Sequence record: PV357171.2
DNA: 64,000 nucleotides
Reading direction: 5' to 3' (one strand)
Origin: a phage
This document shows, one piece after another, positions 1,121-5,649 of the stretch. The notes beneath the pieces were generated by a model. That model did no database searches. It saw only the letters and a program-made list of their open reading frames with translations, and was not told where the DNA came from. How positions within the stretch are numbered: the first letter of the stretch is position 1; each line of letters begins with the position of its first letter. Position numbers and translations under genes: made by a program.

Positions 1121-1855
1121 ATGAATCAAGTTAAAACGAATATTACCCGTAATTTCCCGCATATTTCCCGCGTCATGATTTGGGATCTTGATGGCACTAT
1201 CGTTAATTCATTCCATCGTGTCGCGCCTTGCTTTGATAGCGACGGGAATTTAAATTTAAATAAGTATAAAAATGAGGCTTGCAAACATGATTTAATAATG
1301 CAAGATACTTTATTGCCTTTGGTGGAATATATGCGCCAATGCATGAATGACGCAAATACTTTAAACATTATTTGCACCGCTCGACTGATGAGCAAATCAG
1401 ACTATTATTATTTGCGTAAACAAGGATTGCGCGGGCGTGGTGATAGTAATATCCGTGTATTTTCCCGCGATACACTGCATAAATATTTTGAGGCTGATAA
1501 GGTTAGCGAAATATACCACAGCAAAGACGCAGTTTATAAATCGTATTATTTTGAGCTATTCAAACAACTATATCCGAACGCTGATTTTACAATGATTGAT
1601 GATCATAAAGGTGTATTATCAGCGGCAGCGTCATACGGATTTAAAACGCTGGACGCGCAAGCCGTTAATGATATTCTATCAATCGGCGTGGCATTGATAG
1701 GCGGAACCTTTATTGATGAATCTCTCGATGATGATAATGATTATCAGTTCCTAGCGGACCGATTGAAATTATGTTGGGAAAGTATGACCGAGGAAGAACG
1801 CGCAGAATATAGTTGCAGCCCGCAACAATATATTGAGAAATTAAAAGTTGCGTAA
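1121..1855 (+). CDS. dmp: 5'-deoxynucleotidase, HAD superfamily (T5 Dmp-like)
   Basis: 244 aa; HAD motif I DxDGT in IWDLDGTIVNS near N-terminus; SD GGAG upstream. Confidence 0.65.
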   Translation: MNQVKTNITRNFPHISRVMIWDLDGTIVNSFHRVAPCFDSDGNLNLNKYKNEACKHDLIMQDTLLPLVEYMRQCMNDANTLNIICTARLMSKSDYYYLRKQGLRGRGDSNIRVFSRDTLHKYFEADKVSEIYHSKDAVYKSYYFELFKQLYPNADFTMIDDHKGVLSAAASYGFKTLDAQAVNDILSIGVALIGGTFIDESLDDDNDYQFLADRLKLCWESMTEEERAEYSCSPQQYIEKLKVA

Positions 1856-1870
1856 TAATTAAAGTTGAAA

Positions 1871-1905
1871 TAGTCACGGTGTGTAATGATAACATGCCGT
1901 GACTA
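1871..1905 (+). other. inverted repeat (9-bp stem TAGTCACGG/CCGTGACTA, ~17-nt loop) downstream of dmp
   Basis: Read directly from sequence; not followed by a clear U-tract. Confidence 0.5.
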
Positions 1906-2017
1906 TTAGCTTGCTAAGTACCGGGCGGTAATGAGACTCATTCTCATCTGGGGGGCCACTGCACCCACCCACGCGTACGTAATCCAAAGAATTTGGCAAA
2001 AGTCATTTTAGTGCTAA

Positions 2018-2557
2018 TTAACTGTTTAATTGGGCAACGTCTGGTATACTTCCTTTGAACATCTCCTGTATTGCAAAGTCACCATGAAATGTCCTTCTTA
2101 GTAAATTTGCATAATTTACGGCATCTTCTAATCCGCTATAGGGAAAGTACTTAGTAGTACCCCTTATCAGCCCCTGTTTATCATGTAATCTTACCATCCA
2201 CTTCTGAAGTTCTTTATGCCATGTAACATTTAGATAGCCTGATGATGCTCTTGAGATTCTGCCATTATGATTATTCTCTGTAATTGAAGCCTCTCTTAAA
2301 TTTGACCATCTATTATTTAGTTTATTCCTATCTATGTGGTCTACACATTCCTCTGGCCATCTATTCTCCATAATAACAAAAGCTACTTGATGTGCATAAG
2401 CTTTAAACCCTCGATACTTAAGCTGCCTATATCCCCTATTTAAAGTACCTGCTTCTTTACCCTTACGATTGCCTCTTTTCCAGGTAAAAACTCCGGTTTC
2501 GGGATCATAAGCAAATACTTCTTGTATTTCCTGTATGTTTAAATTATTCTTCATCAC
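2018..2557 (-). CDS. HNH homing endonuclease
   Basis: N-terminal YDPETGxFxW motif shared with three other ORFs in window; HxDxNxxNNRxxNL HNH core. Confidence 0.7.
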   Translation of the reverse strand: MMKNNLNIQEIQEVFAYDPETGVFTWKRGNRKGKEAGTLNRGYRQLKYRGFKAYAHQVAFVIMENRWPEECVDHIDRNKLNNRWSNLREASITENNHNGRISRASSGYLNVTWHKELQKWMVRLHDKQGLIRGTTKYFPYSGLEDAVNYANLLRRTFHGDFAIQEMFKGSIPDVAQLNS

Positions 2558-2789
2558 TCACCTTTGCCCGAAATCTCTTCCGCGACGCCCGAGATCCATC
2601 CGACCACTCCCGCTCAAACTCCGCACGTTTCTCGTCAAACTTCCGCTCCCTTTCCGCAATCTTCCGCTCCCTTTCCGCAATCTCCCGCGATACTTCCGCA
2701 GTATACTTACGATGCTTGTTAATAGCCGCAGTCATTCCGAAAACTCCCGCAAGTACCCCGATAATAAAAGCAATTATAATACTAAACAT
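2544..2789 (-). CDS. small membrane protein (81 aa), N-terminal TM helix then highly charged ER/K-rich tail
   Basis: Hydrophobic segment FSIIIAFIIGVLAGVFGMTAA; charged repeat REIAERERKIAERERK; overlaps neighbours (coupled chain). Confidence 0.5.
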   Translation of the reverse strand: MFSIIIAFIIGVLAGVFGMTAAINKHRKYTAEVSREIAERERKIAERERKFDEKRAEFEREWSDGSRASRKRFRAKVSDEE

Positions 2790-2976
2790 CTAATTCCCTC
2801 TCAATTTGCAGAATACGGGTACTATCACAACGTTGGAGTTCTACTAATTTTTCTAGAGCAAATTGTTGTTGTTTTACCTGAGCTTCTAGAGTTTTTAGGC
2901 GAACATACGCGTTATAAGAAACAATGAAAGTTGCCCAGACTAGTATTACTATTAGTGTAGCTACTACTTCCATCAT
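2782..2976 (-). CDS. small single-pass membrane protein (64 aa), paralog family MEW/MEV-TM-coiled coil
   Basis: TM segment VVATLIVILVWATFIV followed by coiled-coil-like tail; ATGA overlap with upstream ORF. Confidence 0.5.
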   Translation of the reverse strand: MMEVVATLIVILVWATFIVSYNAYVRLKTLEAQVKQQQFALEKLVELQRCDSTRILQIERELDV

Positions 2977-3080
2977 TTACGTTTCTCCGTTAGTAAAGTT
3001 TCAATTCTAGCTAAGTGATTATCTAAAATACATTGCCCAATAATCATAATTCCCAGTAATGAAATAATTACCCATTCCAT
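2973..3080 (-). CDS. small single-pass membrane protein (35 aa), paralog not in ORF track
   Basis: Hand translation: MEWVIISLLGIMIIGQCILDNHLARIETLLTEKRK; TAATG overlap at 5' end and ATGA overlap at 3' end; DNA-level repeat with the adjacent paralog. Confidence 0.4.
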   Translation of the reverse strand: MEWVIISLLGIMIIGQCILDNHLARIETLLTEKRK

Positions 3081-3235
3081 TATTTACGCTCCTCTAATAA
3101 AGTTTCAATTCTAGATAACCTATTACTCAACTGCATTAATTTAACCTCTACTTGGGTTACAGAGGTATCTATTACACGTAAGCCTACAAAGAGAAGTATC
3201 AGTAGGATGAATATGCCAATAATTACCCATTCCAT
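3080..3235 (-). CDS. small single-pass membrane protein (about 51 aa from internal ATG of track ORF 3080..3265)
   Basis: MEWVIIGIFILLILLFVG TM then ...RIETLLEERK tail; start ATG shares one base with upstream stop. Confidence 0.5.
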   Translation of the reverse strand: MEWVIIGIFILLILLFVGLRVIDTSVTQVEVKLMQLSNRLSRIETLLEERK

Positions 3236-3426
3236 TAAATCCACCCCGCCATAGCTGCTAACCAAAAACCTACGAAGATTAGGAATAATACAAAACCAAA
3301 TCCGTAAATATTAATCCACGCTTCGTACACTTCTCCGCGTCTGTTCTTTCTTTTGTTTGACATATCTTTCCTGCTCCTATAAATATAGTATTTGGAATAT
3401 TTTATAATTTGCGCATAGCCAACCAT
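3235..3426 (-). CDS. small membrane protein (63 aa) with basic N-terminus and C-terminal TM helix
   Basis: KRKNRRGE basic patch then GFGFVLFLIFVGFWLAAMAGWI hydrophobic C-terminus. Confidence 0.45.
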   Translation of the reverse strand: MVGYAQIIKYSKYYIYRSRKDMSNKRKNRRGEVYEAWINIYGFGFVLFLIFVGFWLAAMAGWI

Positions 3427-3539
3427 GCTCGTGATTTCCTAGAAGGGCTTTTCACTTTCTTGCATAGTGTTTTCTGCTAGTACACCATCCAAGAAATAAA
3501 AAATTTAGTTTACTTGGATGTCTTTTTGCTTTATACTAA

Positions 3540-3806
3540 TTACAAGTAATTAGATTGCTCTAGTTTAAATTTACAATCACCATATTTAAGGTCAAACTGA
3601 CTGAGATCCCACCATCCAAACTTAGTACGGAGCTGTACTACTGGAAAGCGATCTCCCTTAATACGAACTTTTTGAACCTTGAGACCGTAATGTTCTTCTC
3701 CCTCACCACCAAAAGATTTTACAAATCCAGTACAAAATGGTTTGGGAGCAGGTGCACAACCAGATAACATAACTGCGGCAACTAGTGTAATCACAAACTT
3801 TTTCAT
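3540..3806 (-). CDS. llp: lytic-conversion lipoprotein (Llp-like receptor-blocking lipoprotein)
   Basis: Signal peptide with lipobox LSGC; 88 aa; divergently transcribed from receptor-binding protein gene as in T5. Confidence 0.7.
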   Translation of the reverse strand: MKKFVITLVAAVMLSGCAPAPKPFCTGFVKSFGGEGEEHYGLKVQKVRIKGDRFPVVQLRTKFGWWDLSQFDLKYGDCKFKLEQSNYL

Positions 3807-3837
3807 ATTTATCTCTCCATTTCTAATTTATGAATAT

Positions 3838-3866
3838 ATTATAGCAAAATAGAGAGATGAAAGCAA
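3838..3866 (-). promoter_or_regulatory. sigma70-type early promoter for llp (TTGCTT-17-TATAAT on minus strand)
   Basis: Hexamers read from sequence; member of the T5 early promoter family. Confidence 0.6.
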
Positions 3867-3891
3867 ATACATTTTTATAATAGGAGATTAT

Positions 3892-5649
3892 ATGGGTTTT
3901 TTCGCTGGAAAATATAGCGATGGTAAGACCGTACTATCTTTAAATACTGAATCTGGTGGTGACATTAATCGTCACTATAGTCCAAATACCAATAGTATTT
4001 TTCATAGTGATATGCCATTTGTCCTAGTTGATGGTACTTATGAGTCTGGGTTAGGTGATGCCGGTAATGGGTTTTTTGTATGTCAGATGCCCTCTGACAT
4101 AATAAATATTAAATCCAATGACCCCGGTAGAGTTATATTAACTGCTATTGAGATTAATGGTACTCACAGAGCTTTTCTTAATGGTACTCAGAGTAAGGTG
4201 GGTCAAACTATAGTTGCCACTCAAGCAGATCCTTTTAGATCTTTTGCTAGTGTTTCCCAGACTAGTGGATTTGCATTTGGTAATAGCCTGGCATCTGGTA
4301 CATATAACTATAATCCATCTATAGGGCATGAAGAATCTATTTCTAGGAATGGTACAGGGGGTACTACCTTACATAGTACGTATCATGGTATAGTTAGGCC
4401 GGGTGCAGGAGCTCCAGTAGGTATTACTGTTGCAGAAGCTTTTGCACAGTTAGGATTCCCTACTAATAGTAGTACAGTACCTATAGATGGTAATAACCAA
4501 TATTACTGGGACCCAGGATGGATGTCTCCTTTAGGATCAGCACACAGAGGGCACGATTGGTTTTATGTTTGTAACTCTAACATACGTGGGTATGGTGGGG
4601 TAAGACAAGGTCTTCCTGGTAATGTAAATACTATGTATCATGATGGAGGTAACAGATTTGTTTGTAGGGGGTCTACAACTAATTTAGCTAACCAATCTGG
4701 TAACGCTACAATATTACAGGATTGGTATAACATAACCCCTACTAAAGTTATTTGGTATGTTCTGAATTTAAGATACTCAAATGGTGGTATGAGTATCTCT
4801 GGTAATCCTTTTACTGGTTCAGATATTCTTATATCTCCTTCTAATTTCATAATTAAAGGGGTTAGTCTTCCCAATACTGGATACAAGTTTATTAACCAGA
4901 ACGCTTTTGGTAACTTAGGTTATAGACCAGATATGGAGTATATAGGAAATAACGCAGCGTATACCGGGGTTTTTGGGGATACCACGGCAAGGTGTGAACT
5001 TGTAGGATCTAGTAATGGGGGTTTGTGGTCTCCTGTAGATTATGGAGGGGCTAAATCTCAAATTAGTATTTATAAATTCGGAGCTGGTAAGCAATGGTAT
5101 GTAAACTCTAGGGATAATACTATCGGTAATGAACACGGGGTTGTTTGGGGACCATCAGCAGTTCCATTACGACTTTTTGGTGGAAATGTAGGTAGCTCTT
5201 ACATGGGGGATGATATTACTCCCAGCTACCCGGGAACAGGGGATAGATACGTTGGTTTATCAACTATTGGGCTAGGTATACCGGGTGGCAATGCTACAGT
5301 AATTCTTACCACTGAAGTTATATCAGGTAACCTTAACTGTGCAGGTGTTCCTGCTAATACATGGAATAACGGTGTGTTTCAAGTGCAAGGAAGAAGAGCA
5401 TATAGCTATAGTAATGGAGATGCAATATTCCACCAGATTTTAACATTACCAGTAGGGTATTTAGTACCTTTTCATACTACATCTGCTTTTAGATACACAC
5501 CTAACAATGCCCTAAGTAGAAATAGTTTTATATACACTGCTAAAAATCTGGGGAATGGAAATGTAGAGTTAGGGGTAGTTATGCACGTAAGTTTAGGTAG
5601 TGCAGTTTTCCTACCGAGATTAAGAGTAACAGTTCAACGCCTTACCTAA
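3892..5649 (+). CDS. oad: receptor-binding tail protein (pb5/Oad-like)
   Basis: 585 aa; adjacent and divergent to llp; SD AGGAGA upstream; position before terminase as in T5. Confidence 0.6.

Follow-up and report, generated by a model that had tools for sequence, protein, structure and literature searches.

Five overlapping genes for small membrane proteins behind llp in a T5-like phage: very probable identity with T5.159–T5.162 and a tandem duplicate of T5.160

Between llp and the long terminal repeat of a T5-like phage lies a row of very short reading frames, and the question that they raise is whether they are genes, which genes they are and what they might do at the membrane. We examined this row in a 64,000 nt stretch of Tequintavirus (T5-like phage) DNA from record PV357171.2, referred to here as the window. 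Five minus-strand frames, g1 to g5, run head to tail in the final unique DNA ahead of the terminal repeat, flanked by llp and an HNH gene (Table 1). The HNH gene, which only some relatives carry, sits between the chain and the repeat. The g1/g2 and g2/g3 junctions are both TAATG. The g3/g4 junction is ATGA, or TGATG if the second ATG of g4 (2973) is the start, in which case g4 encodes 63 amino acids. The g4/g5 overlap is 8 nt and the g5/HNH overlap 11–14 nt. A Shine–Dalgarno-like motif precedes every start (in order, AGGAG, GGGGTGGA, GAGGAG, GGAG and GAGGG). No further copies of the chain genes were found elsewhere in the window.

Table 1. Positions of the chain genes and associated features in the window.
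Feature	Positions	Strand	Description
g1	3363-3235	minus	42 aa; T5.159 orthologue, PHROG 8596
g2	3235-3080	minus	51 aa; tandem paralogue of g3/T5.160, lineage-restricted, PHROG 6369
g3	3080-2973	minus	35 aa; T5.160 orthologue, PHROG 6369
g4	2976-2782	minus	64 aa; T5.161 orthologue, PHROG 5851
g5	2789-2544	minus	81 aa; T5.162 orthologue, PHROG 6447 "membrane protein"
llp	3806-3540	minus	Cor/Llp-type receptor-blocking outer-membrane lipoprotein; upstream neighbour of the chain
HNH homing-endonuclease gene	2557-2018	minus	start overlaps the end of g5
Conserved leader block 5' of g1	3364-3411	minus	conserved across both llp module types
-10-like hexamer TATAAA/TAAAAT in the g1 leader	3406-3399	minus	
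Shine–Dalgarno AGGAG of g1	3378-3374	minus	
Terminator-like hairpin	1812-1826	minus	inside the 3' end of dmp, downstream of HNH; conserved in four phages
Repeat block D3	3063-3082 / 3218-3237		20 nt, 100%; TAATG junction and first six codons (MEWVII) of g3, g2
Repeat block D1	2985-3021 / 3089-3125		37 nt, 81%; N(H/R)L(A/S)RIETLL tails of g3, g2

An initial annotation of this DNA had described five frames with overlapping stop and start codons, and that arrangement is borne out, with the same junctions recurring in 22 related loci. The translational coupling that it proposed is supported by the overlaps together with the Shine–Dalgarno motifs. Its outer limit has to be moved, since it had extended the chain to 3426 and conservation places the start of the first gene at the ATG at 3363 (MSNKRK). 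A 63-codon g1 starting at 3426 was considered and rejected: many relatives have ACG in place of that upstream ATG, and T5-type loci lack it. Conservation 5' of the start at 3363 reaches only about 50 nt upstream.

The frames behave as selected genes. Reading frames and junctions are maintained across 22–23 related loci (the g1 frame in 23 of 23), variation is concentrated at third codon positions, and the indels are in frame. The dN/dS ratios are 0.11 for g1, 0.13 for g3, 0.29 for g4 and 0.30 for g5. Conservation in related phages was one of the points on which the initial annotation had staked its reading, and the frames have indeed been kept. Because the junctions and frames recur and dN/dS stays within 0.11–0.30, we judge the chain genes to be far beyond chance.

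It is very probable, judging from sequence and gene order, that the five genes are the T5.159–T5.162 chain of the T5-like phages (Markadamsvirinae) together with g2, a lineage-specific tandem duplicate of T5.160. The chain genes are thus already catalogued and are no new kind of object. In the T5 record (NC_005859), T5.159–162 measure 129, 108, 195 and 246 nt, are each noted as "contains single transmembrane domain" and stop 42 nt short of the right terminal repeat. Their frames align with g1, g3, g4 and g5, which they match in length, order and overlaps, and the proteins are 78–91% identical. The position is also the same: on the llp strand, directly downstream of llp, as the last genes before the terminal repeat. 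The PHROG profiles recover every member, at E-values of 6e-31 for g1, 1.4e-14 for g2, 1e-24 for g3, 2.8e-35 for g4 and 1.6e-39 for g5. The window differs from T5 in the extra 51-codon g2 between the counterparts of T5.159 and T5.160, in an in-frame 7-codon duplication and another C-terminal tail in g5, and in the HNH endonuclease gene after g5. The same five genes, g2 included, are all annotated as CDS in HildyBeyeler (Bas33, bas33_0187-0191), ECOP18 and Salmonella phage MET_P1_100_107. Over 85% of the region, the DNA of the last is 97.8% identical to that of the window, and its g4 is shortened to 45 aa; these five-gene phages vary among themselves in the g5 tail and in whether they carry HNH.

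The chain is present in essentially every Escherichia/Salmonella T5-like phage, and no relatives were found elsewhere. It is also annotated in Epseptimavirus. Among phage records, g5 is found in 444, dmp at an identity of at least 80% in 442, and g2 in 38. Word-based homologue searches with g4 and g5 returned T5-like phage proteins only, and the g4 relatives fall into 255 clusters, all T5-like. Sequence searches of Pfam, NCBIfam, PADLOC and PDB gave nothing above threshold for the chain proteins. The main text of the literature searched held no mention of T5.159–162. T5-like phages lie outside the range of the HIDEN-SEQ and transposon papers, and the BF23 and T5 pre-early papers deal with other genes. 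The Klebsiella phages of the Sugarland type have two genes, of 74 and 151 aa, between the pb5 homologue and dmp (in L027, 5812-6036 and 5353-5808). They resemble the chain in position and in the logic of their strand. The 74-aa protein starts with MEVV, followed by a TM helix, KRLE and then a coiled coil, and in the 151-aa protein a charged helix comes after a TM helix. The locus differs in having these two genes only and no lipoprotein, and homology to g4 is no more than possible (BLASTP E 0.016; hhalign 34%).

How did the extra gene arise? The initial annotation had proposed a tandem duplication, and one pair of genes, g2 and g3, supports it: they share MEWVII and RIETLL(E/T)E, belong to the same PHROG, are matched by hhalign at a probability of 95%, and carry direct repeats. 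The single repeat of about 55 bp that had been described resolves into two separate blocks (D3 and D1 in Table 1). Their spacings differ, 155 as against 104 nt, because g2 has 16 extra codons. Three genes had been credited with a common start and an RIETLL tail; this stands for g2 and g3, but the tail does not extend to g4, which has an ME-V start, a TM helix and an R-L-K-T-L-E motif. Against g2/g3, hhalign gives g4 10% with window-clade profiles and 27–49% (E 2e-4 to 7e-4) with enriched profiles, as compared with 1.4% for a reversed control, and so we regard g4 as not demonstrably homologous to them by sequence. The 35-codon frame at 2973-3080 had been called an unlisted paralog. It is a real ORF, but it was unlisted solely in that annotation's own ORF track, g3 being annotated in T5 (T5.160) and in close relatives. 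Nor is it the extra copy. The conserved T5.160 orthologue is g3, and the variable duplicate is g2, present in 6 of 23 loci. Across phages, the g3 family occurs in 0, 1 or 2 copies.

Transcription can be followed in Bas33, one of the five-gene phages, from RNA-seq at 20 min in two replicates (PMC13250531 Dataset S1). The TPM values are 219/127 for llp, 162/137 for g2, 462/408 for g4, 22/13 for g5 and 525/444 for HNH; the counts per feature are erratic, with 1–2 reads each for g1 and g3 (PMC13250531). The most likely reason for these low counts is that the two features, at 129 and 108 nt, do not reach the read length of 150 nt. When only the first-step DNA is expressed, llp, g2, g4, g5 and HNH fall to about 0 TPM and dmp is unchanged (PMC13250531). 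The chain is therefore not pre-early and comes on after second-step DNA transfer. We infer that it is co-transcribed with llp. There is no canonical terminator between llp and g1, and the sole minus-strand one in 1800-4000 is the hairpin inside dmp, which is the likely end of an llp–chain–HNH transcription unit. A consensus promoter scan upstream of g1 called none, no conserved -35 was found for the -10-like hexamer in the g1 leader, and RNA folding of the llp–g1 intergenic region is unremarkable (z = -1.86).

The near-zero g1 and g3 counts could be read to mean that the ORFs are untranslated, and that what is conserved is the antisense ORF at 2535-2927 or else a DNA or RNA element by the terminal repeat. 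On the antisense strand, 77–138 codons in a row are free of stops in 23 of 23 loci. We find this scarcely credible, however, given the sense-frame dN/dS, the in-frame indels, and a Shine–Dalgarno motif and TM helix in every gene; the low counts fit features below the read length, and the flanking genes have hundreds. The antisense ORF itself was rejected, as variability in g5 peaks (35 sites) at the third codon position of the sense frame, corresponding to the first of the antisense frame.

The initial annotation took the products for small single-pass membrane proteins, and prediction agrees, finding one TM helix in each of the five. Each protein has one 17-residue segment with a mean Kyte–Doolittle hydropathy of 2.4–3.2. 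In g1, a basic N-terminus (MSNKRKNRRGE) is followed by a C-terminal TM helix, and the protein is predicted to be tail-anchored with that N-terminus in the cytoplasm. In g2, an N-terminal TM helix is followed by a 4.5-heptad coiled coil to RIETLLEERK. In g3, a TM helix with a conserved GQC is followed by DNHLARIETLL, and in g4 the TM helix is followed by a heptad-patterned helix. Shuffled sequences reached the heptad pattern in 0 of 2000 trials for g2 and in 93 of 2000 for g4. In g5, the TM helix leads into a helix that is 59% charged, with an invariant motif FERxWxDGSRxSRxxF. AF2 models g4 as a single helix over residues 2–62 (pLDDT 89) and g5 as a single helix over 2–80 (pLDDT 80.7), and the prediction for each product of the chain is one TM helix continuing as a single long helix. 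In g2–g5, 0–2 residues precede the TM helix and Lys/Arg stand just after it. The positive-inside rule, the sole basis for topology here and one that leaves g3 ambiguous, predicts the N-terminus outside and the tails, coiled-coil in g2 and g4 and highly charged in g5, in the cytoplasm. The soluble tails have 16–58 residues.

Proteins of this build invite several readings. One is that they regulate lysis timing at the cytoplasmic membrane late in infection, as holin, antiholin or spanin-like accessory proteins. They are, after all, small single-pass phage membrane proteins, transcribed at 20 min when the late genes are on too, and g4 is weakly like DivIC (E 0.07) and g5 like FtsL (E 0.04), which are divisome proteins with a TM helix and coiled coil. 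Those matches lie far below cut-offs, though, and the neighbours (llp, pb5, HNH and dmp) include no endolysin gene, so that the chain does not form the lysis cassette beside an endolysin in which a holin or antiholin is expected. For spanins, the tails are too short and predicted to be on the wrong side, and g1–g5 show neither a lipobox nor a predicted long periplasmic coiled coil. The T5-like phages have a full cassette of holin, endolysin and spanin elsewhere in the genome (PMC4342426), which makes lysis control by the chain very unlikely.

A second reading is that the cytoplasmic helices, anchored in the membrane, serve host takeover or anti-defence by binding, inhibiting or mimicking a host inner-membrane protein; candidate targets would be an envelope regulator of the LapA/YhcB type, FtsH or a membrane-bound abortive-infection effector. 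PHROG 6447 is in the category "moron, auxiliary metabolic gene and host takeover", the genes, which vary in copy number, are accessory, and the invariant cytoplasmic motifs suggest a specific partner. LapA domain (PF06305) and YhcB/ZapG-like bitopic proteins resemble g5 in having a TM helix and then a charged cytoplasmic helix, a likeness of architecture only. Against Pfam LapA_dom, where the gathering cut-off is 28 bits, g5 scores 23.5 bits (E 5e-5). Of 17 family members, 12 match at E <= 0.01, but like g5 none of them gets to the cut-off. Among 1.84 billion representatives, a full HMMER search with a g5-family profile found just five sequences, all from that family, with no bacterial relatives and none beyond the T5-like family. 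LapA-domain membership of g5 was therefore rejected. There is also no PADLOC, NCBIfam or PDB match, and the pattern, a TM helix and then a charged helix, is generic and of low complexity. We consider host takeover, with these targets, unlikely.

The chain appears to be accessory, and we infer that plaque formation in the laboratory does not need it. In the T5 CRISPRi-ART screen, T5.159–162 all scored "Not Fit" (PMC11879866, supplementary file 16). These negatives are weak evidence because the portal gene, T5.152, scored "Not Fit" as well (PMC11879866). Natural truncations or deletions in the chain occur in loci L003, L013, L017 and L019. Chain alleles and the type of the llp/pb5 receptor module assort independently: in L010 a T5-type llp is accompanied by a g4 98% identical to that of the window, and in L020 a window-type llp by a g4 just 81% identical. 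Therefore, any role of the chain is not receptor-specific.

These observations also bear on the labels "tail assembly protein" for g4 and "tail fiber protein" for g3 in GenBank/UniRef, by which the chain would encode morphogenesis helpers acting on pb5, the receptor-binding protein encoded nearby, or on the tail tip at the membrane. The chain does adjoin pb5 and the late region, and the Klebsiella relatives retain TM/coiled-coil genes beside the pb5 homologue. On the other side, there is no match to a Pfam, PHROG, NCBIfam or PDB tail family, the chain runs on the other strand from pb5 and the late operon, its alleles show no covariation with pb5 type, and knockdown was "Not Fit" (PMC11879866). 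A part in morphogenesis is highly improbable, and the labels look like propagated automatic annotation.

What, then, might the chain do beside llp? Most likely, the five proteins are made in fixed proportions and come together, by way of their TM and juxtamembrane helices, as a small hetero-oligomeric inner-membrane complex, an idea based only on translational coupling and helix propensity. Llp itself works in the periplasm, against the outer-membrane receptor. Like it, Imm and Sp of T4 are small envelope proteins that a lytic phage expresses and can do without in the laboratory. The chain is like Imm/Sp and Llp/Cor in encoding small envelope proteins, and lies directly behind llp; it differs in lacking sequence similarity and a lipobox. 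In the window, llp alone matches PHROG 1119 (E 2.2e-26) and has an LPAM_1 lipobox, with neither found in g1–g5. Llp and Sp act in the periplasm, whereas the soluble parts of the chain proteins are predicted to be cytoplasmic, on the opposite face from the site of Llp action. As a tentative guess at the specific role, the complex may be a receptor-independent partner of Llp that conditions the cytoplasmic membrane against a second DNA entry or envelope damage, which would parallel the pairing of Imm and Sp in T4. The functional tie to Llp is weakened because Klebsiella T5-like phages have two genes of similar architecture there without the lipoprotein. Taking the identity, the complex and the receptor-independent partnership with Llp together, we lean slightly towards this account. 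A stronger form, in which the complex would give receptor-independent superinfection immunity to any T5-like phage by blocking DNA entry or channel formation from the cytoplasmic face, with specificity tuned by the copy number of the T5.160 type (0, 1 or 2), we regard as quite unlikely. If this is true, T5 "lytic conversion" would have, in addition to Llp, a second layer that has so far gone unrecognised.

Useful in themselves are the corrected start of g1, the recognition of g2 as the variable paralogue and the finding that the tail labels are unsupported. The chain is under purifying selection and adjoins the sole characterised T5 exclusion gene. Should it encode a complex for exclusion or host conditioning at the membrane, a classic model phage would gain a component, and the choice of T5-like phages for cocktails could be affected.

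The five short minus-strand genes behind llp (g1 to g5) are an already known T5-like gene chain, annotated but uncharacterised, together with a lineage-specific tandem duplicate. A sequence search with 2400-3550 matched 306 phage records, nearly all Escherichia or Salmonella Tequintavirus (T5-like). The best matches are Salmonella phage MET_P1_100_107 (97.8% across 85% of the query) and, at 90-91% over the full length, two Escherichia phages, ECOP18 and HildyBeyeler. The T5 reference record holds the orthologues of g1, g3, g4 and g5 as T5.159 (129 nt), T5.160 (108 nt), T5.161 (195 nt) and T5.162 (246 nt). These overlap as the window genes do, end 42 nt short of the right terminal repeat, and each is noted as 'contains single transmembrane domain'. 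The PHROG matches are 8596 for g1, 6369 for g2 and g3, and 5851 for g4, none with an assigned function, and 6447 for g5, labelled just 'membrane protein'. The 35-codon gene g3, which the initial annotation described as unlisted, is the canonical, conserved member, annotated in T5, ECOP18, HildyBeyeler and MET_P1_100_107. In several GenBank records and in UniRef, homologues of g3 carry the name 'tail fiber protein' and those of g4 the name 'tail assembly protein' (L001 2969-3267; L003 2971-3078). No family match supports either label, and both appear to be propagated automatic annotation.

Gene map of the region around llp and the chain
Feature	Coordinates	Strand	Product
3' end of A1, two small ORFs, dmp (1121-1855)	to 1855	+	
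HNH endonuclease	2557-2018	-	
Five small genes g1-g5	3363-2544	-	
g1	3363-3235	-	42 aa
g2	3235-3080	-	51 aa
g3	3080-2973	-	35 aa
g4	2976-2782	-	64 aa
g5	2789-2544	-	81 aa
llp lipoprotein	3806-3540	-	
Receptor-binding protein pb5	3892-5649	+	

For comparison, 22 related loci were gathered and homologues located in each, giving 23 loci with the window. T5 has four genes here; the fifth gene of the window is g2, a 51-codon T5.160 paralogue inserted between T5.159 and T5.160. Sequence comparison shows g2 and g3 to be clear paralogues (hhalign 95%), in keeping with the tandem duplication first proposed. Of the three paralogues then claimed, g4 is not clearly one: it has an ME-V start, a TM helix and an R-L-K-T-L-E motif in common with g2/g3, and its profile comparison to them gives 10% with narrow profiles and 27-49% with enriched ones (reversed control, 1.4%). 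The reported ~55-bp direct repeat exists but is split into a 20-nt block (100%) spanning the junction and MEWVII and a 37-nt block (81%) spanning the RIETLL tail, unequally spaced because g2 carries 16 extra codons. The g2-type paralogue occurs in 6 of the 23 loci and in 38 phage records; g5 occurs in 444, about equal to the 442 with dmp at at least 80% identity. One Epseptimavirus locus (L026 2289-2849) has g1, g4 and g5 only, so the copy number of the T5.160 family is 0, 1 or 2. In Epseptimaviruses (L023 1823-2746) an additional acidic ORF of 104 aa separates llp from g1 and overlaps the g1 start.

Reading the minus strand bears out five ORFs with overlapping stop and start codons: TAATG at g1/g2 and g2/g3, ATGA at g3/g4, and an 8-nt overlap at g4/g5; g5 and the HNH gene overlap by 11-14 nt. 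The Shine-Dalgarno-like motif ahead of each g2 to g5 start sits within the preceding gene, and the g1 start also has one. Translation of g4 may begin at either of two adjacent ATGs; two loci have ATA in place of the first, and BF23 has ATA in place of the second. The annotated beginning of the chain at 3426 is not supported: the ATG there is ACG in many relatives and absent from T5-type loci, and conservation reaches only ~50 nt upstream of the ATG at 3363. That block (3364-3411) is kept in phages whose llp modules are unrelated. It has a -10-like hexamer (TATAAA/TAAAAT in the window, TAGAGT or TAGAAT in other phages) with no -35 conserved across phages, and could act as an internal promoter that is weak or depends on a factor.

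Loss of these frames in related phages had been named as a result that would count against them; across the loci they are preserved, save in a few isolates disrupted in g4 or g5. Pooled pairwise dN/dS is 0.11, 0.24, 0.13, 0.29 and 0.30 for g1 to g5. The third codon position is the most variable in all but g2, for which the loci supplied just four distinct sequences. An antisense stop-free stretch (2535-2927) is found in all loci; its first codon position varies most, so we regard it as a consequence of the purine richness of the sense strand and not as a gene. Premature stops in single isolates (L003 3075-3212; L013, L017, L019) cut g4 to 45 or 56 aa and g5 to 35 aa, and a 17-codon in-frame deletion of g5 occurs among them. 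By sequence these fit dispensability, with sequencing errors as the alternative.

Indels within g5 are in-frame repeats. The window has a 21-nt tandem duplication (2636-2677, IAERERK twice), found in none of the other 22 loci, that preserves the 7-residue spacing of hydrophobic residues; elsewhere in the family g5 has different repeats that stay in frame, an AEKR duplication among them. After ...SRKRF the g5 tail has four alternative versions (2544-2570). AKVSDEE (window) and the KI(N/D)GKS type each occur only beside one type of HNH gene, and the remaining two occur both with and without HNH downstream. Together with the overlap of the HNH start (2018-2557) and the g5 stop, this indicates a homing or recombination breakpoint within the g5 3' end.

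As predicted, every protein of the chain has one strongly hydrophobic segment, of 17 residues. In g1 it is a TM helix at the C-terminal end behind a basic N-terminus (+5/-2), which makes g1 a predicted tail-anchored protein. The others run ME or MFS, TM helix, Lys/Arg; by the positive-inside rule we infer cytoplasmic tails, ambiguously for g3. AlphaFold2 models g5 and g4 each as one continuous helix (pLDDT 80.7 and 89). The tail of g2 follows a nearly perfect heptad pattern (a/d = L I V V L L L I L), matched by 0 of 2000 shuffles; the g4 pattern is weaker, reached by 93 of 2000. Charged residues make up 59% of the g5 tail. The motif conserved in g3 is IIGQCILDNHLARIE; those of g4 are RLKTLEAxVKQQQ and RILQIERELDV, and that of g5 is FERxWxDGSRxSRxxF.

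Bas33 (HildyBeyeler) carries the same five genes, and RNA-seq is available at 20 min post-infection in two replicates (PMC13250531, Dataset S1). Counts/TPM in replicates 1 and 2 are 1108/219 and 531/127 for llp, 2/0.8 and 2/1.0 for g1, 479/162 and 334/137 for g2, 1/0.5 and 2/1.2 for g3, 1704/462 and 1243/408 for g4, 104/22 and 51/13 for g5, and 5363/525 and 3739/444 for HNH (PMC13250531). The near-zero g1 and g3 counts are most likely due to the length of these features, which is below that of the 150-nt reads, given that the genes flanking them have reads in the hundreds. When daunorubicin limits expression to first-step DNA, llp, g1 to g5 and HNH fall to ~0 and dmp is unaffected (PMC13250531). 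Therefore, the chain does not belong to the pre-early class, and HNH and dmp lie on either side of the terminal-repeat boundary. Alignment to the T5 repeat start agrees: the 162 nt between the HNH and dmp stops (1856-2017) align with the opening bases of that repeat, which places the boundary here and makes HNH and the chain the last unique genes. In Bas33, correspondingly, dmp is pre-early and HNH is not.

A sequence scan found no terminator-like site between llp and g1; the sole one on the minus strand within 1800-4000 follows HNH. A conserved GC-rich hairpin (1812-1826, GTTGCGGGCTGCAAC) within the dmp 3' end, where dmp meets the convergent llp-HNH unit, may be a bidirectional terminator. 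Directly past the llp stop is another hairpin (3486-3529; CATCCAAG, 19-nt loop, CTTGGATG). On the plus strand TCTTTTTGC comes next, which suggests a terminator serving opposite-direction transcription and not llp.

In T5 CRISPRi-ART, T5.159 to T5.162 score -3.86, -3.55, -4.11 and -3.60 (PMC11879866, supplementary file 16), and all are called 'Not Fit' (PMC11879866). The portal gene is likewise 'Not Fit', so the knockdown is weak evidence for dispensability; the natural g4/g5 truncations also favour it.

Homologue searches with g4 and g5 and a profile search with g5 detected no relatives outside T5-like phages. The main rival reading is that the chain encodes host-takeover or anti-defence factors; sequence searches of Pfam, NCBIfam, PADLOC and PDB gave no match above threshold. 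The g5 match to LapA_dom is consistent but sub-threshold, and we take it for a resemblance of architecture alone. In T5-like genomes, genes elsewhere already fill the canonical lysis roles (PMC4342426). At the corresponding position, Klebsiella T5-like phages have a pair of genes of similar architecture and no lipoprotein. In the Sugarland type (L027 5353-6036, vB_Kpn_K7_rec10), just these two lie between the pb5 homologue and dmp: a 74-aa protein beginning MEVV with a TM helix and coiled coil, and a 151-aa protein with a TM helix, charged helix and Ser/Gly-rich tail. g4 and g5 may have distant positional analogues in these two.

Chain alleles do not track the llp/pb5 receptor module, and any role would therefore be receptor-independent. 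Our preferred guess, a tentative one held at low confidence, is receptor-independent exclusion or membrane conditioning. The best reading of the chain is that its products would form an accessory hetero-oligomeric inner-membrane complex, produced together with Llp.
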